Source: Escherichia coli
GTDB taxonomy: Bacteria > Pseudomonadota > Gammaproteobacteria > Enterobacterales > Enterobacteriaceae
Length of the DNA: 64,000 nt
Strand: one strand, 5' to 3'
Assembly: GCF_044324785.1 (NCBI RefSeq)
Contig: NZ_CP172127.1
Position numbers and translations under genes: made by a program. Position 1 is the first letter of the stretch; every line of letters starts with the position of its first letter. Below, piece by piece: positions 13,491 through 61,745 of the stretch. Under the pieces are notes generated by a model, which worked only from the letters and a program-made list of their open reading frames with translations, was not told where the DNA came from and ran no database searches.

Positions 13491-14446
13491 TGAAGCAACT
13501 TTGGTTTGCCATGTCATTAGTGACAGGTAGCCTGTTATTCTCTGCTAACGCCTCGGCCACTCCCGCGTCCGGGGCGTTATTACAGCAGATGAACCTGGCC
13601 AGTCAGTCACTGAATTACGAGCTGTCATTTATCAGCATCAATAAACAGGGTGTTGAGTCTCTGCGTTATCGACATGCACGCCTCGATAACCGTCCTCTTG
13701 CACAATTGTTGCAAATGGATGGCCCGCGCCGGGAAGTGGTACAGCGCGGCAATGAAATCAGCTATTTTGAACCGGGACTTGAACCGTTCACGCTTAATGG
13801 CGATTACATTGTTGATTCTCTGCCATCGCTCATCTATACCGATTTCAAACGCCTTTCTCCTTACTACGACTTTATCTCCGTCGGGCGCACGCGTATTGCT
13901 GATCGTCTTTGCGAAGTCATTCGCGTGGTTGCCCGAGATGGTACACGCTACAGCTACATCGTGTGGATGGACACCGAATCGAAATTACCGATGCGGGTTG
14001 ATCTCCTTGATCGCGATGGTGAAACGCTGGAACAATTTCGCGTGATTGCTTTTAACGTCAATCAGGATATCGGCAGCAGTATGCAGACGCTGGCGAAGGC
14101 AAATTTGCCGCCGTTGCTTTCTGTTCCTGTAGGTGAAAAAGCTAAATTCAGCTGGACGCCAACCTGGTTGCCACAGGGTTTTAGCGAAGTTTCCAGTAGT
14201 CGACGTCCGCTACCGACGATGGACAACATGCCTATCGAATCACGTCTCTATTCCGACGGATTATTCAGCTTCTCGGTAAACGTTAACCGCGCTACGCCAT
14301 CGAGCACCGATCAGATGTTGCGCACCGGGCGCAGAACCGTCAGTACAAGCGTACGTGATAACGCCGAAATCACCATTGTCGGTGAACTGCCGCCGCAAAC
14401 GGCGAAACGCATTGCCGAGAATATTAAGTTCGGGGCAGCGCAATGA
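13490..14446 (+). CDS. rseB: SigmaE regulatory protein RseB
   Basis: 318 aa with signal peptide; start overlaps the rseA stop (TAATG). Confidence 0.95.
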   Translation: MKQLWFAMSLVTGSLLFSANASATPASGALLQQMNLASQSLNYELSFISINKQGVESLRYRHARLDNRPLAQLLQMDGPRREVVQRGNEISYFEPGLEPFTLNGDYIVDSLPSLIYTDFKRLSPYYDFISVGRTRIADRLCEVIRVVARDGTRYSYIVWMDTESKLPMRVDLLDRDGETLEQFRVIAFNVNQDIGSSMQTLAKANLPPLLSVPVGEKAKFSWTPTWLPQGFSEVSSSRRPLPTMDNMPIESRLYSDGLFSFSVNVNRATPSSTDQMLRTGRRTVSTSVRDNAEITIVGELPPQTAKRIAENIKFGAAQ

Positions 14447-14922
14447 TCAAAGAGTGGGCTACCGTCGTCTCCTGGGAAAACGGGCAGGCGCTGGTTAGTT
14501 GTGATGTTAAAGCCTCATGCAGCAGCTGCGCTTCACGCGCCGGTTGCGGTAGCCGCGTGTTGAATAAACTTGGCCCGCAAACCACGCATACCATTGTCGT
14601 ACCCTGTGATGAGCCGTTAGTGCCGGGGCAAAAAGTGGAATTGGGGATCGCCGAAGGCAGCCTGCTTAGCTCCGCATTACTGGTTTATATGTCGCCGCTG
14701 GTGGGATTATTTCTCATCGCTTCGCTATTTCAGCTACTCTTTGCTTCAGATATTGCAGCATTATGCGGTGCGATTCTCGGTGGCGTTGGTGGATTCCTGA
14801 TTGCACGTGGCTGCTCTCGAAAGTTTGCTGCCCGGTCTGAATGGCAACCGATCATCTTAAGCGTGGCATTGCCGCCTGGCCTTGTGCGATTTGAAACATC
14901 TTCGGAAGACGCGAGCCAGTGA
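14443..14922 (+). CDS. rseC: SoxR-reducing system / sigmaE regulatory protein RseC
   Basis: 159 aa; N-terminal Cys cluster and two TM helices; start overlaps the rseB stop (ATGA). Confidence 0.9.
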   Translation: MIKEWATVVSWENGQALVSCDVKASCSSCASRAGCGSRVLNKLGPQTTHTIVVPCDEPLVPGQKVELGIAEGSLLSSALLVYMSPLVGLFLIASLFQLLFASDIAALCGAILGGVGGFLIARGCSRKFAARSEWQPIILSVALPPGLVRFETSSEDASQ

Positions 14923-15119
14923 TTTCACTGGCTTTGTTGCATTTTGCATAACAAATGCGAGGACGTTTCCAGATACCACAATCCATACGGTATGAACATT
15001 TCCTCGCCTCAATGTTGTAGTGTAGAATGCGGCGTTTCTATTAATACAGACGTTAAGCTCAGAACAGCGACTTCTAAAAGCCTGGTTAACCGGGCATTAA
15101 GGCACAATAATCATACTTT

Positions 15120-16919
<1,800 letters not shown>

Positions 16920-18013: not shown

Positions 18014-18054
18014 ATTCCCCCGAAGTTTAAGGTTGGCACCTCCAGGTTGCCACG

Positions 18055-18148
18055 GCACACGAAACAGCGTTGGTCCCCATATACCGGTAAACTGAAACTG
18101 CAGCGAAGCAGTTAGCAGAGCCATGTATATCAGGTCTGTTTCGTGTGC
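18055..18148 (+). promoter_or_regulatory. rnc 5' leader stem-loop (RNase III autoregulatory target)
   Basis: Perfect 13-nt arms GCACACGAAACAG (18055-18067) and CTGTTTCGTGTGC (18136-18148) enclosing 68 nt, 34 nt upstream of the rnc ATG. Confidence 0.7.
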
Positions 18149-18151
18149 TGA

Positions 18152-19764
<1,613 letters not shown>

Positions 19765-21644: not shown

Positions 21645-21726
21645 TTATAAAGTAAAACCCCCGAACTGGTAAGGAACGGGGGTTTTACTTTTTAACTTTA
21701 ATTTTGTGCAGCACACGATTCCAACG
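21645..21726 (-). ncRNA. ohsC: Probable OhsC antitoxin sRNA of the shoB type I toxin-antitoxin pair (boundaries approximate)
   Basis: Plus-strand 21706-21724 (GTGCAGCACACGATTCCAA) repeats shoB 5'-UTR 21955-21973 at 18 of 19 positions, so a minus-strand transcript is antisense to the shoB leader; candidate minus-strand -10 CATAAT (complement of 21733-21738); terminator at 21652-21688. Confidence 0.35.
21652..21693. terminator. Bidirectional intrinsic terminator (acpS on plus strand; probable OhsC 3' end on minus strand)
   Basis: GTAAAACCCCCG / CGGGGGTTTTAC 12-bp stem with T-rich flanks on both strands. Confidence 0.75.
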
Positions 21727-30904: not shown

Positions 30905-31088
30905 AGTGGCTCATTCACCGACTTATGTCAGCCCCTTCGGGACGTGCTACATAAAATTCGAATGACGCACAACAAGGTGCCTGCCGTCCAACTTCTGATA
31001 TCAGCGTAGCTATATCAACCATCGGGCGAAACGTCGAGTTAGGCACCGCCTTATTCCATAACAAAGCCGGGTAATTCCCGGCTTTGTT
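30905..31088 (+). ncRNA. glmY: GlmY small RNA (SroF/tke1), about 184 nt
   Basis: Starts about 12 nt after the -12 element (AGTGGCTCATTCACC...) and ends at terminator hairpin AAAGCCGGG taatt CCCGGCTTT (31063-31085) plus GTTGT; in the purL-glrK gap next to the GlrK/GlrR genes. Confidence 0.75.
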
Positions 31089-38024: not shown

Positions 38025-38128
38025 GTTCATGCCGGAAGCGGCATGAACGCCTTATCCGGCCTACAAAACTTTGCAAATTCAATATATTGCAATATCCGTG
38101 TAGGCCTGATAAGCGTAGTGCATCAGGC
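38025..38128. repeat. REP/BIME cluster downstream of glyA
   Basis: Hairpin GTTCATGCCG...CGGCATGAAC, then REP copies GCCTTATCCGGCCTAC and inverted GTAGGCCTGATAAGCG...CATCAGGC. Confidence 0.8.
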
Positions 38129-48429: not shown

Positions 48430-48437
48430 TTTATAAA

Positions 48438-48477
48438 ATGCCGGATAAGGCGTTCACGCCGCATCCGGCATGTTTTT
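48438..48477. repeat. REP-type palindrome between yphB and yphA, also serving as terminator
   Basis: ATGCCGGAT aaggcgttcacgccgc ATCCGGCAT followed by GTTTTT. Confidence 0.75.
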
Positions 48478-58920: not shown

Positions 58921-59661
58921 ATGCTGCAAAATATTCGAATTGTGCTGGTGGAGACGTCACACACCGGCAATATGGGTTCTGTTGCCCGTGCCATGAAAAC
59001 AATGGGATTAACCAATCTGTGGCTGGTTAATCCACTGGTGAAACCTGACTCCCAGGCGATTGCCCTGGCAGCAGGGGCCAGCGATGTGATTGGTAATGCT
59101 CATATCGTCGATACGCTCGACGAAGCGTTAGCCGGTTGTAGCCTGGTGGTGGGCACCAGCGCACGCTCCCGCACGCTGCCGTGGCCGATGCTCGACCCGC
59201 GCGAATGTGGTCTGAAAAGCGTCGCTGAAGCGGCAAATACCCCGGTGGCGCTGGTTTTTGGTCGTGAGCGTGTTGGCTTGACCAATGAAGAGTTGCAGAA
59301 ATGCCATTATCATGTCGCGATTGCTGCGAACCCGGAATACAGTTCGCTGAACCTGGCGATGGCGGTTCAGGTTATTGCCTATGAAGTGCGCATGGCCTGG
59401 CTGGCAACTCAGGAAGATGGCGAACAAGTCGAGCATGAAGAGACGCCGTATCCGCTGGTCGATGATCTGGAGCGTTTTTATGGTCATCTGGAACAAACGC
59501 TGCTGGCAACCGGTTTTATTCGTGAAAACCATCCGGGGCAGGTGATGAATAAATTGCGCCGTCTGTTTACCCGTGCGCGCCCGGAAAGCCAGGAATTGAA
59601 TATCCTGCGCGGGATTCTGGCTTCTATAGAGCAGCAGAATAAAGGTAATAAGGCCGAATAA
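58921..59661 (+). CDS. trmJ: tRNA (cytidine/uridine-2'-O)-methyltransferase TrmJ (YfhQ)
   Basis: 246 aa SpoU-class methyltransferase. Confidence 0.95.
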
Positions 59662-59669
59662 CAGTGGTT

Positions 59670-59753
59670 GCCTGATGCGACGCTTAATGCGTCTTATCAG
59701 GCCTACAATGTACAGAACCGTAGGTCGGATAAGGTGTTCACACCGCATCCGAC
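59670..59753. repeat. REP/BIME pair between trmJ and iscR
   Basis: GCCTGATGCGACGCTTAATGCGTCTTATCAGGCCTAC and GTAGGTCGGATAAGGTGTTCACACCGCATCCGAC in inverted arrangement. Confidence 0.8.
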
Positions 59754-59799
59754 AACAGGTACAAACGCCACGATAAAAAAATGGCACTGAAGGTTAAAT

Positions 59800-59880
59800 A
59801 CCCGACTAAATCAGTCAAGTAAATAGTTGACCAATTTACTCGGGAATGTCAGACTTGACCCTGCTATGCAATACCCCCAC
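59800..59880 (+). promoter_or_regulatory. iscR promoter with tandem IscR type-1 binding sites
   Basis: AAATACCCGACTAAATCAGTCAAGTAAATAGTTGACC and AATTTACTCGGGAATGTCAGACTTGACCC upstream of iscR; match the recalled IscR autoregulatory sites. Confidence 0.7.
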
Positions 59881-59930
59881 TTTTACAATAAAAAACCCCG
59901 GGCAGGGGCGAGTTTGAGGTGAAGTAAGAC

Positions 59931-60419
59931 ATGAGACTGACATCTAAAGGGCGCTATGCCGTGACCGCAATGCTTGACGTTGCGCTCAACTCTGAAGCGG
60001 GCCCGGTACCGTTGGCTGATATTTCCGAACGTCAGGGAATTTCCCTTTCTTATCTGGAACAACTGTTTTCCCGTCTGCGTAAAAATGGTCTGGTTTCCAG
60101 CGTACGTGGACCAGGCGGTGGTTATCTGTTAGGCAAAGATGCCAGCAGCATCGCCGTTGGCGAAGTGATTAGCGCCGTTGACGAATCTGTAGATGCTACC
60201 CGTTGTCAGGGTAAAGGCGGCTGCCAGGGCGGCGATAAATGCCTGACCCACGCGCTGTGGCGTGATTTGAGCGACCGTCTCACCGGTTTTCTCAACAACA
60301 TTACTTTAGGCGAACTGGTTAATAACCAGGAAGTGCTGGATGTGTCTGGTCGTCAGCATACTCACGACGCGCCACGCACCCGCACACAAGACGCGATCGA
60401 CGTTAAGTTACGCGCTTAA
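59931..60419 (+). CDS. iscR: Fe-S cluster regulator IscR
   Basis: 162 aa Rrf2-family; cluster-ligating Cys residues (CQGKGGC...C). Confidence 0.97.
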
Positions 60420-60530
60420 TAAAAAGTATTCAGAATCAGGCCGGAGTGTTTAACACTCCGTAAACACGGTCGTACATCCAGCCGGTAGCCTGGTTCCTTG
60501 CATTGAGTGATGTACGGAGTTTATAGAGCA

Positions 60531-61745
60531 ATGAAATTACCGATTTATCTCGACTACTCCGCAACCACGCCGGTGGACCCGCGTGTTGCCGAGAAAATGA
60601 TGCAGTTTATGACGATGGACGGAACCTTTGGTAACCCGGCCTCCCGTTCTCACCGTTTCGGCTGGCAGGCTGAAGAAGCGGTAGATATCGCCCGTAATCA
60701 GATTGCCGATCTGGTCGGCGCTGACCCGCGTGAAATCGTCTTTACCTCTGGTGCAACCGAATCTGACAACCTGGCGATCAAAGGTGCAGCCAACTTTTAT
60801 CAGAAAAAAGGCAAGCACATCATCACCAGTAAAACCGAACACAAAGCGGTACTGGATACCTGCCGTCAGCTGGAGCGCGAAGGTTTCGAAGTCACCTACC
60901 TGGCACCGCAGCGTAATGGCATTATCGACCTGAAAGAACTGGAAGCAGCGATGCGTGACGACACCATCCTCGTTTCCATCATGCACGTAAATAACGAAAT
61001 CGGCGTGGTGCAGGATATCGCGGCTATCGGCGAAATGTGCCGTGCTCGCGGCATTATCTATCACGTTGATGCAACCCAGAGCGTGGGCAAACTGCCTATC
61101 GACCTGAGCCAGTTGAAAGTTGACCTGATGTCATTCTCCGGTCACAAAATCTATGGCCCGAAAGGGATCGGTGCGCTGTATGTGCGTCGTAAACCGCGCG
61201 TACGCATCGAAGCGCAAATGCACGGCGGCGGTCACGAGCGCGGTATGCGTTCCGGCACTCTGCCTGTTCACCAGATCGTTGGTATGGGCGAAGCCTATCG
61301 CATCGCAAAAGAAGAGATGGCGACCGAGATGGAACGTCTGCGCGGCCTGCGTAACCGTCTGTGGAACGGCATCAAAGATATCGAAGAAGTTTACCTGAAC
61401 GGTGACCTGGAACACGGTGCGCCGAACATTCTCAACGTCAGCTTCAACTACGTTGAAGGTGAGTCGCTGATTATGGCGCTGAAAGACCTCGCGGTTTCTT
61501 CCGGCTCCGCCTGTACGTCGGCAAGCCTCGAACCGTCCTACGTGCTGCGCGCGCTGGGGCTGAACGACGAGCTGGCACATAGCTCTATCCGTTTCTCTTT
61601 AGGTCGTTTTACTACTGAAGAAGAGATCGACTACACCATCGAGTTAGTTCGTAAATCCATCGGTCGTCTGCGTGACCTTTCTCCGCTGTGGGAAATGTAC
61701 AAGCAGGGCGTGGATCTGAACAGCATCGAATGGGCACATCATTAA
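60531..61745 (+). CDS. iscS: Cysteine desulfurase IscS, 404 aa
   Basis: ORF 60507..61745 (GTG); ATG 60531; PLP-lysine [12 protein letters not shown] and active-site SSGSACTS. Confidence 0.98.

Follow-up and report, generated by a model that had tools for sequence, protein, structure and literature searches.

The window analyzed here, a stretch of 64,000 nt of Escherichia coli chromosome from contig NZ_CP172127.1 (RefSeq assembly GCF_044324785.1), contains the iscRSUA operon, with iscR followed directly by iscS on the plus strand. The gene trmJ ends at 59661, upstream of iscR, and iscU, iscA, and hscB lie downstream of iscS. For the start of iscS, the list of open reading frames gives an in-frame GTG at 60507, and the RefSeq annotation gives an ATG at 60531. 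Because iscR ends at 60419 and iscS begins at this ATG, the spacer between the two genes, 60420-60530, is exactly 111 nt long, the length claimed when the region was first picked out; RefSeq annotation of identical E. coli loci concurs. The abstract of the 2009 study by Desnoyers and colleagues is said to give the same figure, and K-12 MG1655 was reportedly the strain used in their experiments. A 351-bp stretch around the spacer is found once each in 5424 of 5426 complete E. coli genomes, annotated as iscR and then iscS. No sigma-70 promoter was found inside the spacer by a scan of 59600-60700, and a 42-aa minus-strand reading frame at 60436-60564 was set aside as a mechanical ORF without support. 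The features of the junction are collected in Table 1.

Table 1. Genes, structural elements, and predicted pairing sites at the iscR-iscS junction
Feature	Position	Strand	Basis and remarks
iscR CDS	59931..60419	+	162 aa, stop codon 60417-60419; upstream cistron protected by the element; ORF list and RefSeq of identical E. coli loci
iscRS "iscR stability element" (RF01517)	60420..60529	+	cmscan, model positions 1-110
Weak outer stem	60427-31 with 60517-21	+	RF01517 consensus; 67% paired, without compensatory change
Structured core	60433..60496	+	Closing stem encloses two hairpins; MFE -28 kcal/mol, z -4.96
9-bp closing stem	GAAUCAGGC 60433-41 / GCCUGGUUC 60488-96	+	99.3% paired over 17 genera; 2 pairs with compensatory change
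Hairpin 1	60442..60460	+	CGGAGUG/CACUCCG, 5-nt loop; Rfam pairs 60442-47 with 60455-60; 5/6 pairs changed on both sides
Hairpin 2	60464..60486	+	60464-69 with 60482-86, interrupted 5-bp stem; 12-nt loop UCGUACAUCCAG 60470-81; 5/5 pairs changed on both sides
5' arm of long-range repeat, CGUACAUC	60471..60478	+	In hairpin 2 loop; GTACATCCAGCC in 8/16 related module-carrying loci
Weak 3' hairpin (U-GCAU...AUG-U-A)	60499..60514	+	RF01517; 85% paired, without compensatory change; isolated duplex -4.4 kcal/mol
Predicted RyhB pairing region	60504..60534	+	Three blocks, over the iscS ribosome-binding site and AUG; hybrid plus accessibility score
3' arm of long-range repeat, GAUGUACG	60509..60516	+	Adjoins iscS Shine-Dalgarno, within predicted RyhB site; invariant in 17/17 aligned genera
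iscS Shine-Dalgarno GGAG	60516..60519	+	11 nt 5' of AUG; invariant in 17-genus alignment; mostly paired in predicted ensemble
iscS CDS	60531..61745	+	ATG 60531-60533; first cistron of the degraded downstream part; ORF list and RefSeq

Several other elements surround the junction. A REP cluster occupies 59637-59786, between trmJ and iscR, where both strands give matches to the REP-derived RNA family naRNA4 at scores of 33-40 bits, below the gathering score of 59.5; its REP tail motifs at 59693-59706 (plus strand) and 59720-59733 (minus strand) belong to genuine REPs, unlike the iscR-iscS spacer. The iscR leader holds a GC-rich hairpin at 59895-59909 (ACCCCGGGCAGGGGC on the plus strand) preceded by an A-run, which the scan scored as a terminator-like site on the minus strand. 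The hairpin sits in the iscR 5' untranslated region, at which the small RNAs OxyS and FnrS were recently reported to act (PMC11572966). Further RNA families above threshold in the 64-kb window are AsrC, antisense to rseC (14407-15238, minus strand), the rncO leader (18022-18236, plus strand), the OhsC antitoxin small RNA (21649-21725, minus strand), and GlmY (30905-31052, plus strand).

A search with cmscan identified the spacer as a full-length match, on the plus strand, to the Rfam family RF01517, covering positions 1-110 of the 110 in the model with 131.7 bits against a gathering score of 40 (E ~1e-35). The match lies where the family is placed, between iscR and iscS and in the sense orientation of iscRSUA. 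The spacer RNA is real and not new: it is already known and curated. The original prediction had assigned a structured region to 60442-60514 and linked it to discoordinate regulation of the operon by the small RNA RyhB, so that a known regulatory RNA was correctly recognized from raw sequence. The link is borne out by the RF01517 match and by the literature citing Desnoyers et al. 2009, and the interval covers part of the element, which is curated as 60420-60529 and has a predicted RyhB site reaching to 60534.

The RF01517 consensus structure places five helices on the spacer. Folded as a whole, the spacer reaches -32.6 kcal/mol (z -2.6). RNA folding had been proposed as a check on the structured region, and when it was run on the core, 60433-60496, none of 200 shuffles was as stable as the native sequence. 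The tight hairpin described at the outset, CGGAGTG (60442-60448) and CACTCCG (60454-60460) around a 5-nt loop, is present and coincides with a helix of the curated structure that is supported by covariation. The second element described, a longer-range GTACATC/GATGTAC inverted repeat, is also present and perfect over 8 bp (CGTACATC at 60471-60478, GATGTACG at 60509-60516), and therefore runs 2 nt past 60514; it lies outside the curated structure and is without covariation support. A further 8-bp complement joins ACTCCGTA (60455-60462) to TACGGAGT (60513-60520). Altogether the 111-nt spacer contains 4 perfect 8-mer inverted-repeat pairs against 0.049 expected, a number reached by 0 of 1000 dinucleotide shuffles.

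Some shorter repeats were seen as well. The hexamer CGGAGU occurs twice (60442-60447 and 60515-60520), as does its complement ACUCCG (60455-60460 and 60556-60561). The nested minimum free energy fold of 60420-60560 joins the Shine-Dalgarno GGAGU to an ACUCC that lies in iscS codons 9-10, and the unpaired probability of the Shine-Dalgarno is at most 0.04. The string CCAGCCGG, in the loop and 3' stem of hairpin 2 (60478-60485), is identical, not complementary, to RyhB nt 71-78, the 5' half of the terminator stem, probably by chance.

For a comparison across species, we assembled 80 iscR loci, with one genome per species, and extracted the iscR-iscS spacers. The 16 loci that carry the structured module were aligned with the window, by sequence only, to give an alignment of 17 Enterobacteriaceae genera. 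When the RF01517 structure is laid on this alignment, 84% of cells are paired, compared with 35-47% when the partners are slid by 1-3 columns. Twelve RF01517 pairs change on both sides, a level attained in 0 of 500 shuffles. Most of this support comes from the closing stem, hairpin 1 (5 of 6 pairs), and hairpin 2 (5 of 5), and there is little for the outer stem or the 3' hairpin. RNAalifold independently recovers the closing stem and the 3' hairpin.

Variation within E. coli was examined in the same region and centers on the hairpin 1 apex. Seven alleles differ from one another at the hairpin 1 apex, at 60427 and upstream of it, and at 60493, and the differences at the apex include one compensatory swap of U-A to C-G. 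The window departs from K-12 MG1655 at 5 spacer positions, 60427, 60449, 60451, 60454, and 60493, three of which are in the hairpin 1 apex; the difference at 60454 turns the top G-C pair of hairpin 1 into G-U, and that at 60493 turns a closing-stem U-G into U-A. Hairpin 1 takes the form CGGAGUG-UUUAA-CACUCCG in the window, CGGAGUG-CUAAA-UACUCCG in K-12, and CGGGGCG-UAUCG-CGCUCCG in an O111 strain and others, with the stem kept in all. Over 60424-60500, identity to the window is 99% or more in only 205 of the 5424 E. coli genomes and 90-95% in 3869.

A passage in the secondary literature calls the structure a REP secondary structure (PMC7038943), which raises the alternative that the spacer holds a canonical copy of this dispersed repeat, placed between iscR and iscS as a generic stabilizer of upstream mRNA. 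The position at the 3' end of the protected cistron is that of stabilizing REPs, and the 8-nt string AGGCCGGA is common to the spacer and the REP consensus. However, a blastn search (word size 11, E up to 1) finds the 77-nt core at a single site in each of 5424 E. coli genomes. Patterns of the REP consensus (GCCGGATGCGGCG...CGCCTTATCCGGCCTAC) locate true REPs at 38031-38113, 48436-48469, and 59693-59733 and find none in 60420-60530, and the sub-threshold naRNA4 matches fall upstream of iscR, outside the spacer. Copy number and consensus rule out membership of the spacer in the REP family, and we regard the generic REP reading as extremely unlikely. Since it is single-copy and without the REP consensus, the element can be called REP-like in function only.

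The two parts of the junction differ in how widely they are conserved. The three-helix module was found only in about 16 Enterobacteriaceae loci of the 80. The segment around the iscS ribosome-binding site, which also holds the predicted RyhB site, is invariant over the 17-genus alignment and is conserved well beyond the structured module: GATGTACGGAG is present in 30 of the 80 loci and GAGCAATG in 33. The GAUGUACGGAG...AGAGCAAUG segment thus counted in 30 to 33 loci covers the Enterobacteriaceae together with Serratia, Yersinia, Hafnia, Dickeya, Pectobacterium, and Brenneria, and it occurs also in Tatumella, Edwardsiella, Mixta, and Rosenbergiella. Given this wide segment and narrow module, the ribosome-binding/RyhB segment looks the older of the two, and the stabilizer, judged from its distribution among these spacers, looks like a later insertion upstream of it.

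Spacers of other kinds were also seen in the comparison set. In Yersinia, Serratia, Mixta, and Hafnia (loci L018, L012, L033, and L016, at about 1896-2097 in each), the spacer matches RF02783 instead of RF01517, and GAUGUACGGAG...AGAGCAAUG is retained. Spacers of 236-259 nt in Citrobacter werkmanii (L003, 1993-2234), Pectobacterium and Brenneria (L024 and L025, 1996-2254), and a Providencia MAG (L052, 1999-2234) owe their length to additional sequence that separates iscR from the conserved 3' segment. Additional short hairpins directly after the iscR stop codon occur in other genera, for example at loci L006, L008, L011, and L015. In Rahnella and Rouxiella, spacers of 208-281 nt (L027, 1996-2203; L031, 1996-2276) carry an intrinsic terminator after iscR (AAAAAAGCCCGCGGG...CCCGCGGGCUUUUUU in Rahnella) and are without the conserved ribosome-binding/RyhB segment, which suggests a different way to uncouple iscR from iscS.

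The RF02783 matches, at 62-212 bits and at the same gene junction, bear on the possibility that the E. coli spacer serves chiefly as an RNA thermometer or translational gate for iscS, sequestering the Shine-Dalgarno in a structure that melts with temperature, independently of RyhB. The E. coli GGAG is almost fully paired in the predicted ensemble (unpaired probability 0.00-0.03), and several CGGAGU/ACUCCG complements are available to it. Even at E up to 10, however, there is no RF02783 match in 59600-60800, and the partner of the E. coli Shine-Dalgarno is either coding sequence at 60556-60560 or the weak outer stem, which is 67% paired without covariation. An anti-Shine-Dalgarno pairing of ACUCCGUA with UACGGAGU was rejected, as it is 61% paired across the alignment and does no better than shuffles. 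A thermometer as the main function is therefore, in our judgment, highly improbable.

The Rahnella and Rouxiella spacers, with a classical GC hairpin and U-run directly after iscR, show that terminator designs exist at this junction, and an iscR-only transcript could in principle result from the end of transcription at an intrinsic terminator or attenuator, not from processing. In the E. coli spacer, however, no helix is followed by a U-run (hairpin 1 is followed by UAAACACGG), and a terminator scan found no site in 60420-60530; on these two grounds an intrinsic terminator in the spacer is ruled out. The iscR fragment is moreover reported, in portions of the RyhB literature, to depend on RyhB and RNase E (PMC12533949, PMC11572966, PMC3089445, PMC5040110, PMC7038943). 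Termination as the source of the iscR-only transcript has, in our view, next to no chance of being correct, and we return to the RF01517 element with its RyhB site.

RyhB pairing was predicted using the MG1655 RyhB sequence. Run plainly on full-length RyhB and 60-nt target segments, RNAduplex returned long duplexes without meaning, some of which opened the RyhB terminator, and it was replaced by an accessibility-aware score (hybrid plus opening energy) for RyhB nt 1-68 over 160 nt around the iscS start. Pairing had been anticipated around 60500-60540, and the best site indeed lies at 60504-60534, with RyhB nt 39-68, at an energy moderately above background. The strongest of its three predicted blocks is a perfect 8-bp pairing of GAGCAAUG (60526-60533, including the AUG) with CAUUGCUC (RyhB nt 40-47); at the Shine-Dalgarno, GGAGU (60516-60520) would pair with RyhB GCUUC (nt 53-57), and upstream, GAGUGAUG (60505-60512) with RyhB nt 61-68. 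From a hybrid energy of -22.9 kcal/mol, opening costs of 12.0 (target) and 3.4 leave a net score of -7.6 kcal/mol, which is equaled by 4 of 100 dinucleotide shuffles and by 4 of 47 translation-initiation regions elsewhere in the window. The calculated energy is thus only moderately significant and is consistent with pairing without deciding it alone; the decisive evidence is published. Portions of the RyhB and iscRSUA literature citing Desnoyers et al. 2009 report that RyhB pairs at the iscS ribosome-binding site, that RNase E-dependent decay of the iscSUA part follows, that the iscR fragment stays stable and translatable owing to strong secondary structure in the spacer, and that the iscS_iscR intergenic region is enriched 17-fold in MS2-RyhB pull-downs (PMC12533949, PMC11572966, PMC3089445, PMC5040110, PMC7038943).

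The long-range repeat overlaps this predicted site. Its 5' arm is held in the loop of hairpin 2, where bases 60473-60477 have an unpaired probability of ~1.0. Since the 5' arm is inside the closing stem and the 3' arm outside it, pairing of the two alongside the core would make a pseudoknot. We considered whether CGUACAUC in the loop pairs with GAUGUACG beside the Shine-Dalgarno as a lineage-specific pseudoknot that would couple the stabilizer to the region where iscS translation starts. In favor, the two arms are complementary over 8 bp without a mismatch, the fold prediction leaves the loop bases unpaired, and the duplex is calculated at -9.6 kcal/mol, compared with -4.4 for the competing 3' hairpin at 60499-60514, which is incompatible with simultaneous long-range pairing and likewise with the RyhB duplex. 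GTACATCCAGCC is identical in the 8 related loci and the window, while only 31% of iscS four-fold synonymous sites are invariant in the same taxa, a comparison with some circularity, since the motif was used to select the taxa.

Against the pseudoknot, the helix is 84% paired over the 17 sequences and no pair is changed on both sides; compensatory change is absent because the 3' arm is invariant everywhere, even in taxa without the 5' arm. Superficieibacter has no 5' arm although its RF01517 score is a strong 84 bits, and the arm is also missing from Cedecea, Siccibacter, Shimwellia, Mangrovibacter, and Klebsiella sp. BIGb0407; its absence from about half of the family weakens the reading. Eight base pairs out of a 12-nt loop would be sterically demanding, and the curated RF01517 structure does not include the pairing. 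The 3' arm is conserved in many Enterobacterales that do not have the structured module, so that its conservation is explained by its role at the Shine-Dalgarno side and in the RyhB site. In the papers citing Desnoyers et al. 2009, the literature covered here, we found no mention of pairing between the hairpin 2 loop and the Shine-Dalgarno flank. From these models and alignments the pseudoknot seems unlikely, with perhaps a small minority chance of forming in some lineages. If it does form, it would modulate iscS translation or be in competition with RyhB for the 3' bases that both need: either RyhB binding would require that the contact be broken, or basal iscS translation and the location of the decay boundary would depend on the contact.

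Family membership, fold, covariation, and RyhB complementarity are all observed in the spacer. We conclude that the iscR-iscS spacer is very probably an intercistronic regulatory RNA with two parts, a stabilizer module at 60433-60496 and a RyhB docking site at about 60504-60534 at the start of iscS. Under iron limitation, Fur-controlled RyhB, together with Hfq, would pair across the iscS ribosome-binding site and AUG and block translation initiation, and the iscSUA part, now unprotected, would be degraded in an RNase E-dependent manner. Decay would halt at the structured module, and an iscR-only transcript would therefore persist and be translated, raising the level of apo-IscR and moving Fe-S cluster assembly from Isc to Suf. 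The E. coli K-12 literature reports that the process depends on RyhB and RNase E and that the iscR fragment is stabilized, for a spacer that differs from that of the window at 5 positions; we infer that the module physically blocks nucleases, as well as where cleavage and the 3' end of the fragment fall.

It is established that the element allows one operon transcript to yield more of the IscR regulator and less of the Isc machinery in iron starvation, and that this drives the switch from Isc to Suf. Portions of the literature on RyhB and iscRSUA link it to aminoglycoside tolerance (PMC12533949, PMC11572966, PMC3089445, PMC5040110, PMC7038943). The present analysis adds small refinements, namely, which helices covary, the status of the REP label, and the wider conservation of the ribosome-binding/RyhB segment.

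The closest known system is the curated element itself, RF01517 (Desnoyers, Morissette, Prevost and Masse 2009, EMBO J 28:1551), which the window resembles in locus, strand, length, and helices and in predicted RyhB complementarity at the iscS initiation region; there is no essential difference, apart from a window allele that departs from K-12 MG1655 at the spacer positions given above. With stabilizing REPs, such as the intercistronic REPs of malE-malF, the element has in common a stable stem-loop that closes the upstream cistron at its 3' end and brings decay to a halt, so that the genes of the operon are expressed unequally, but the element is single-copy per genome and is without the REP consensus. 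The RF02783 IscS-1 ICR thermometer of the Yersinia iscR-iscS spacer lies at the same gene junction, and the conserved GAUGUACGGAG...AGAGCAAUG segment is common to both; the Yersiniaceae-type spacer, however, is 39-70 nt long and without the three-helix module, and the window has no RF02783 match. In Spot 42/galETKM and NarS/nirBDC-cysG, as here, a small RNA pairs at an internal cistron, and the downstream part is repressed or degraded while the upstream cistrons are still expressed. At iscR-iscS, a dedicated intercistronic structure stabilizes the upstream fragment, whereas Spot 42 acts mainly on translation and NarS relies on a terminator (PMC7038943).
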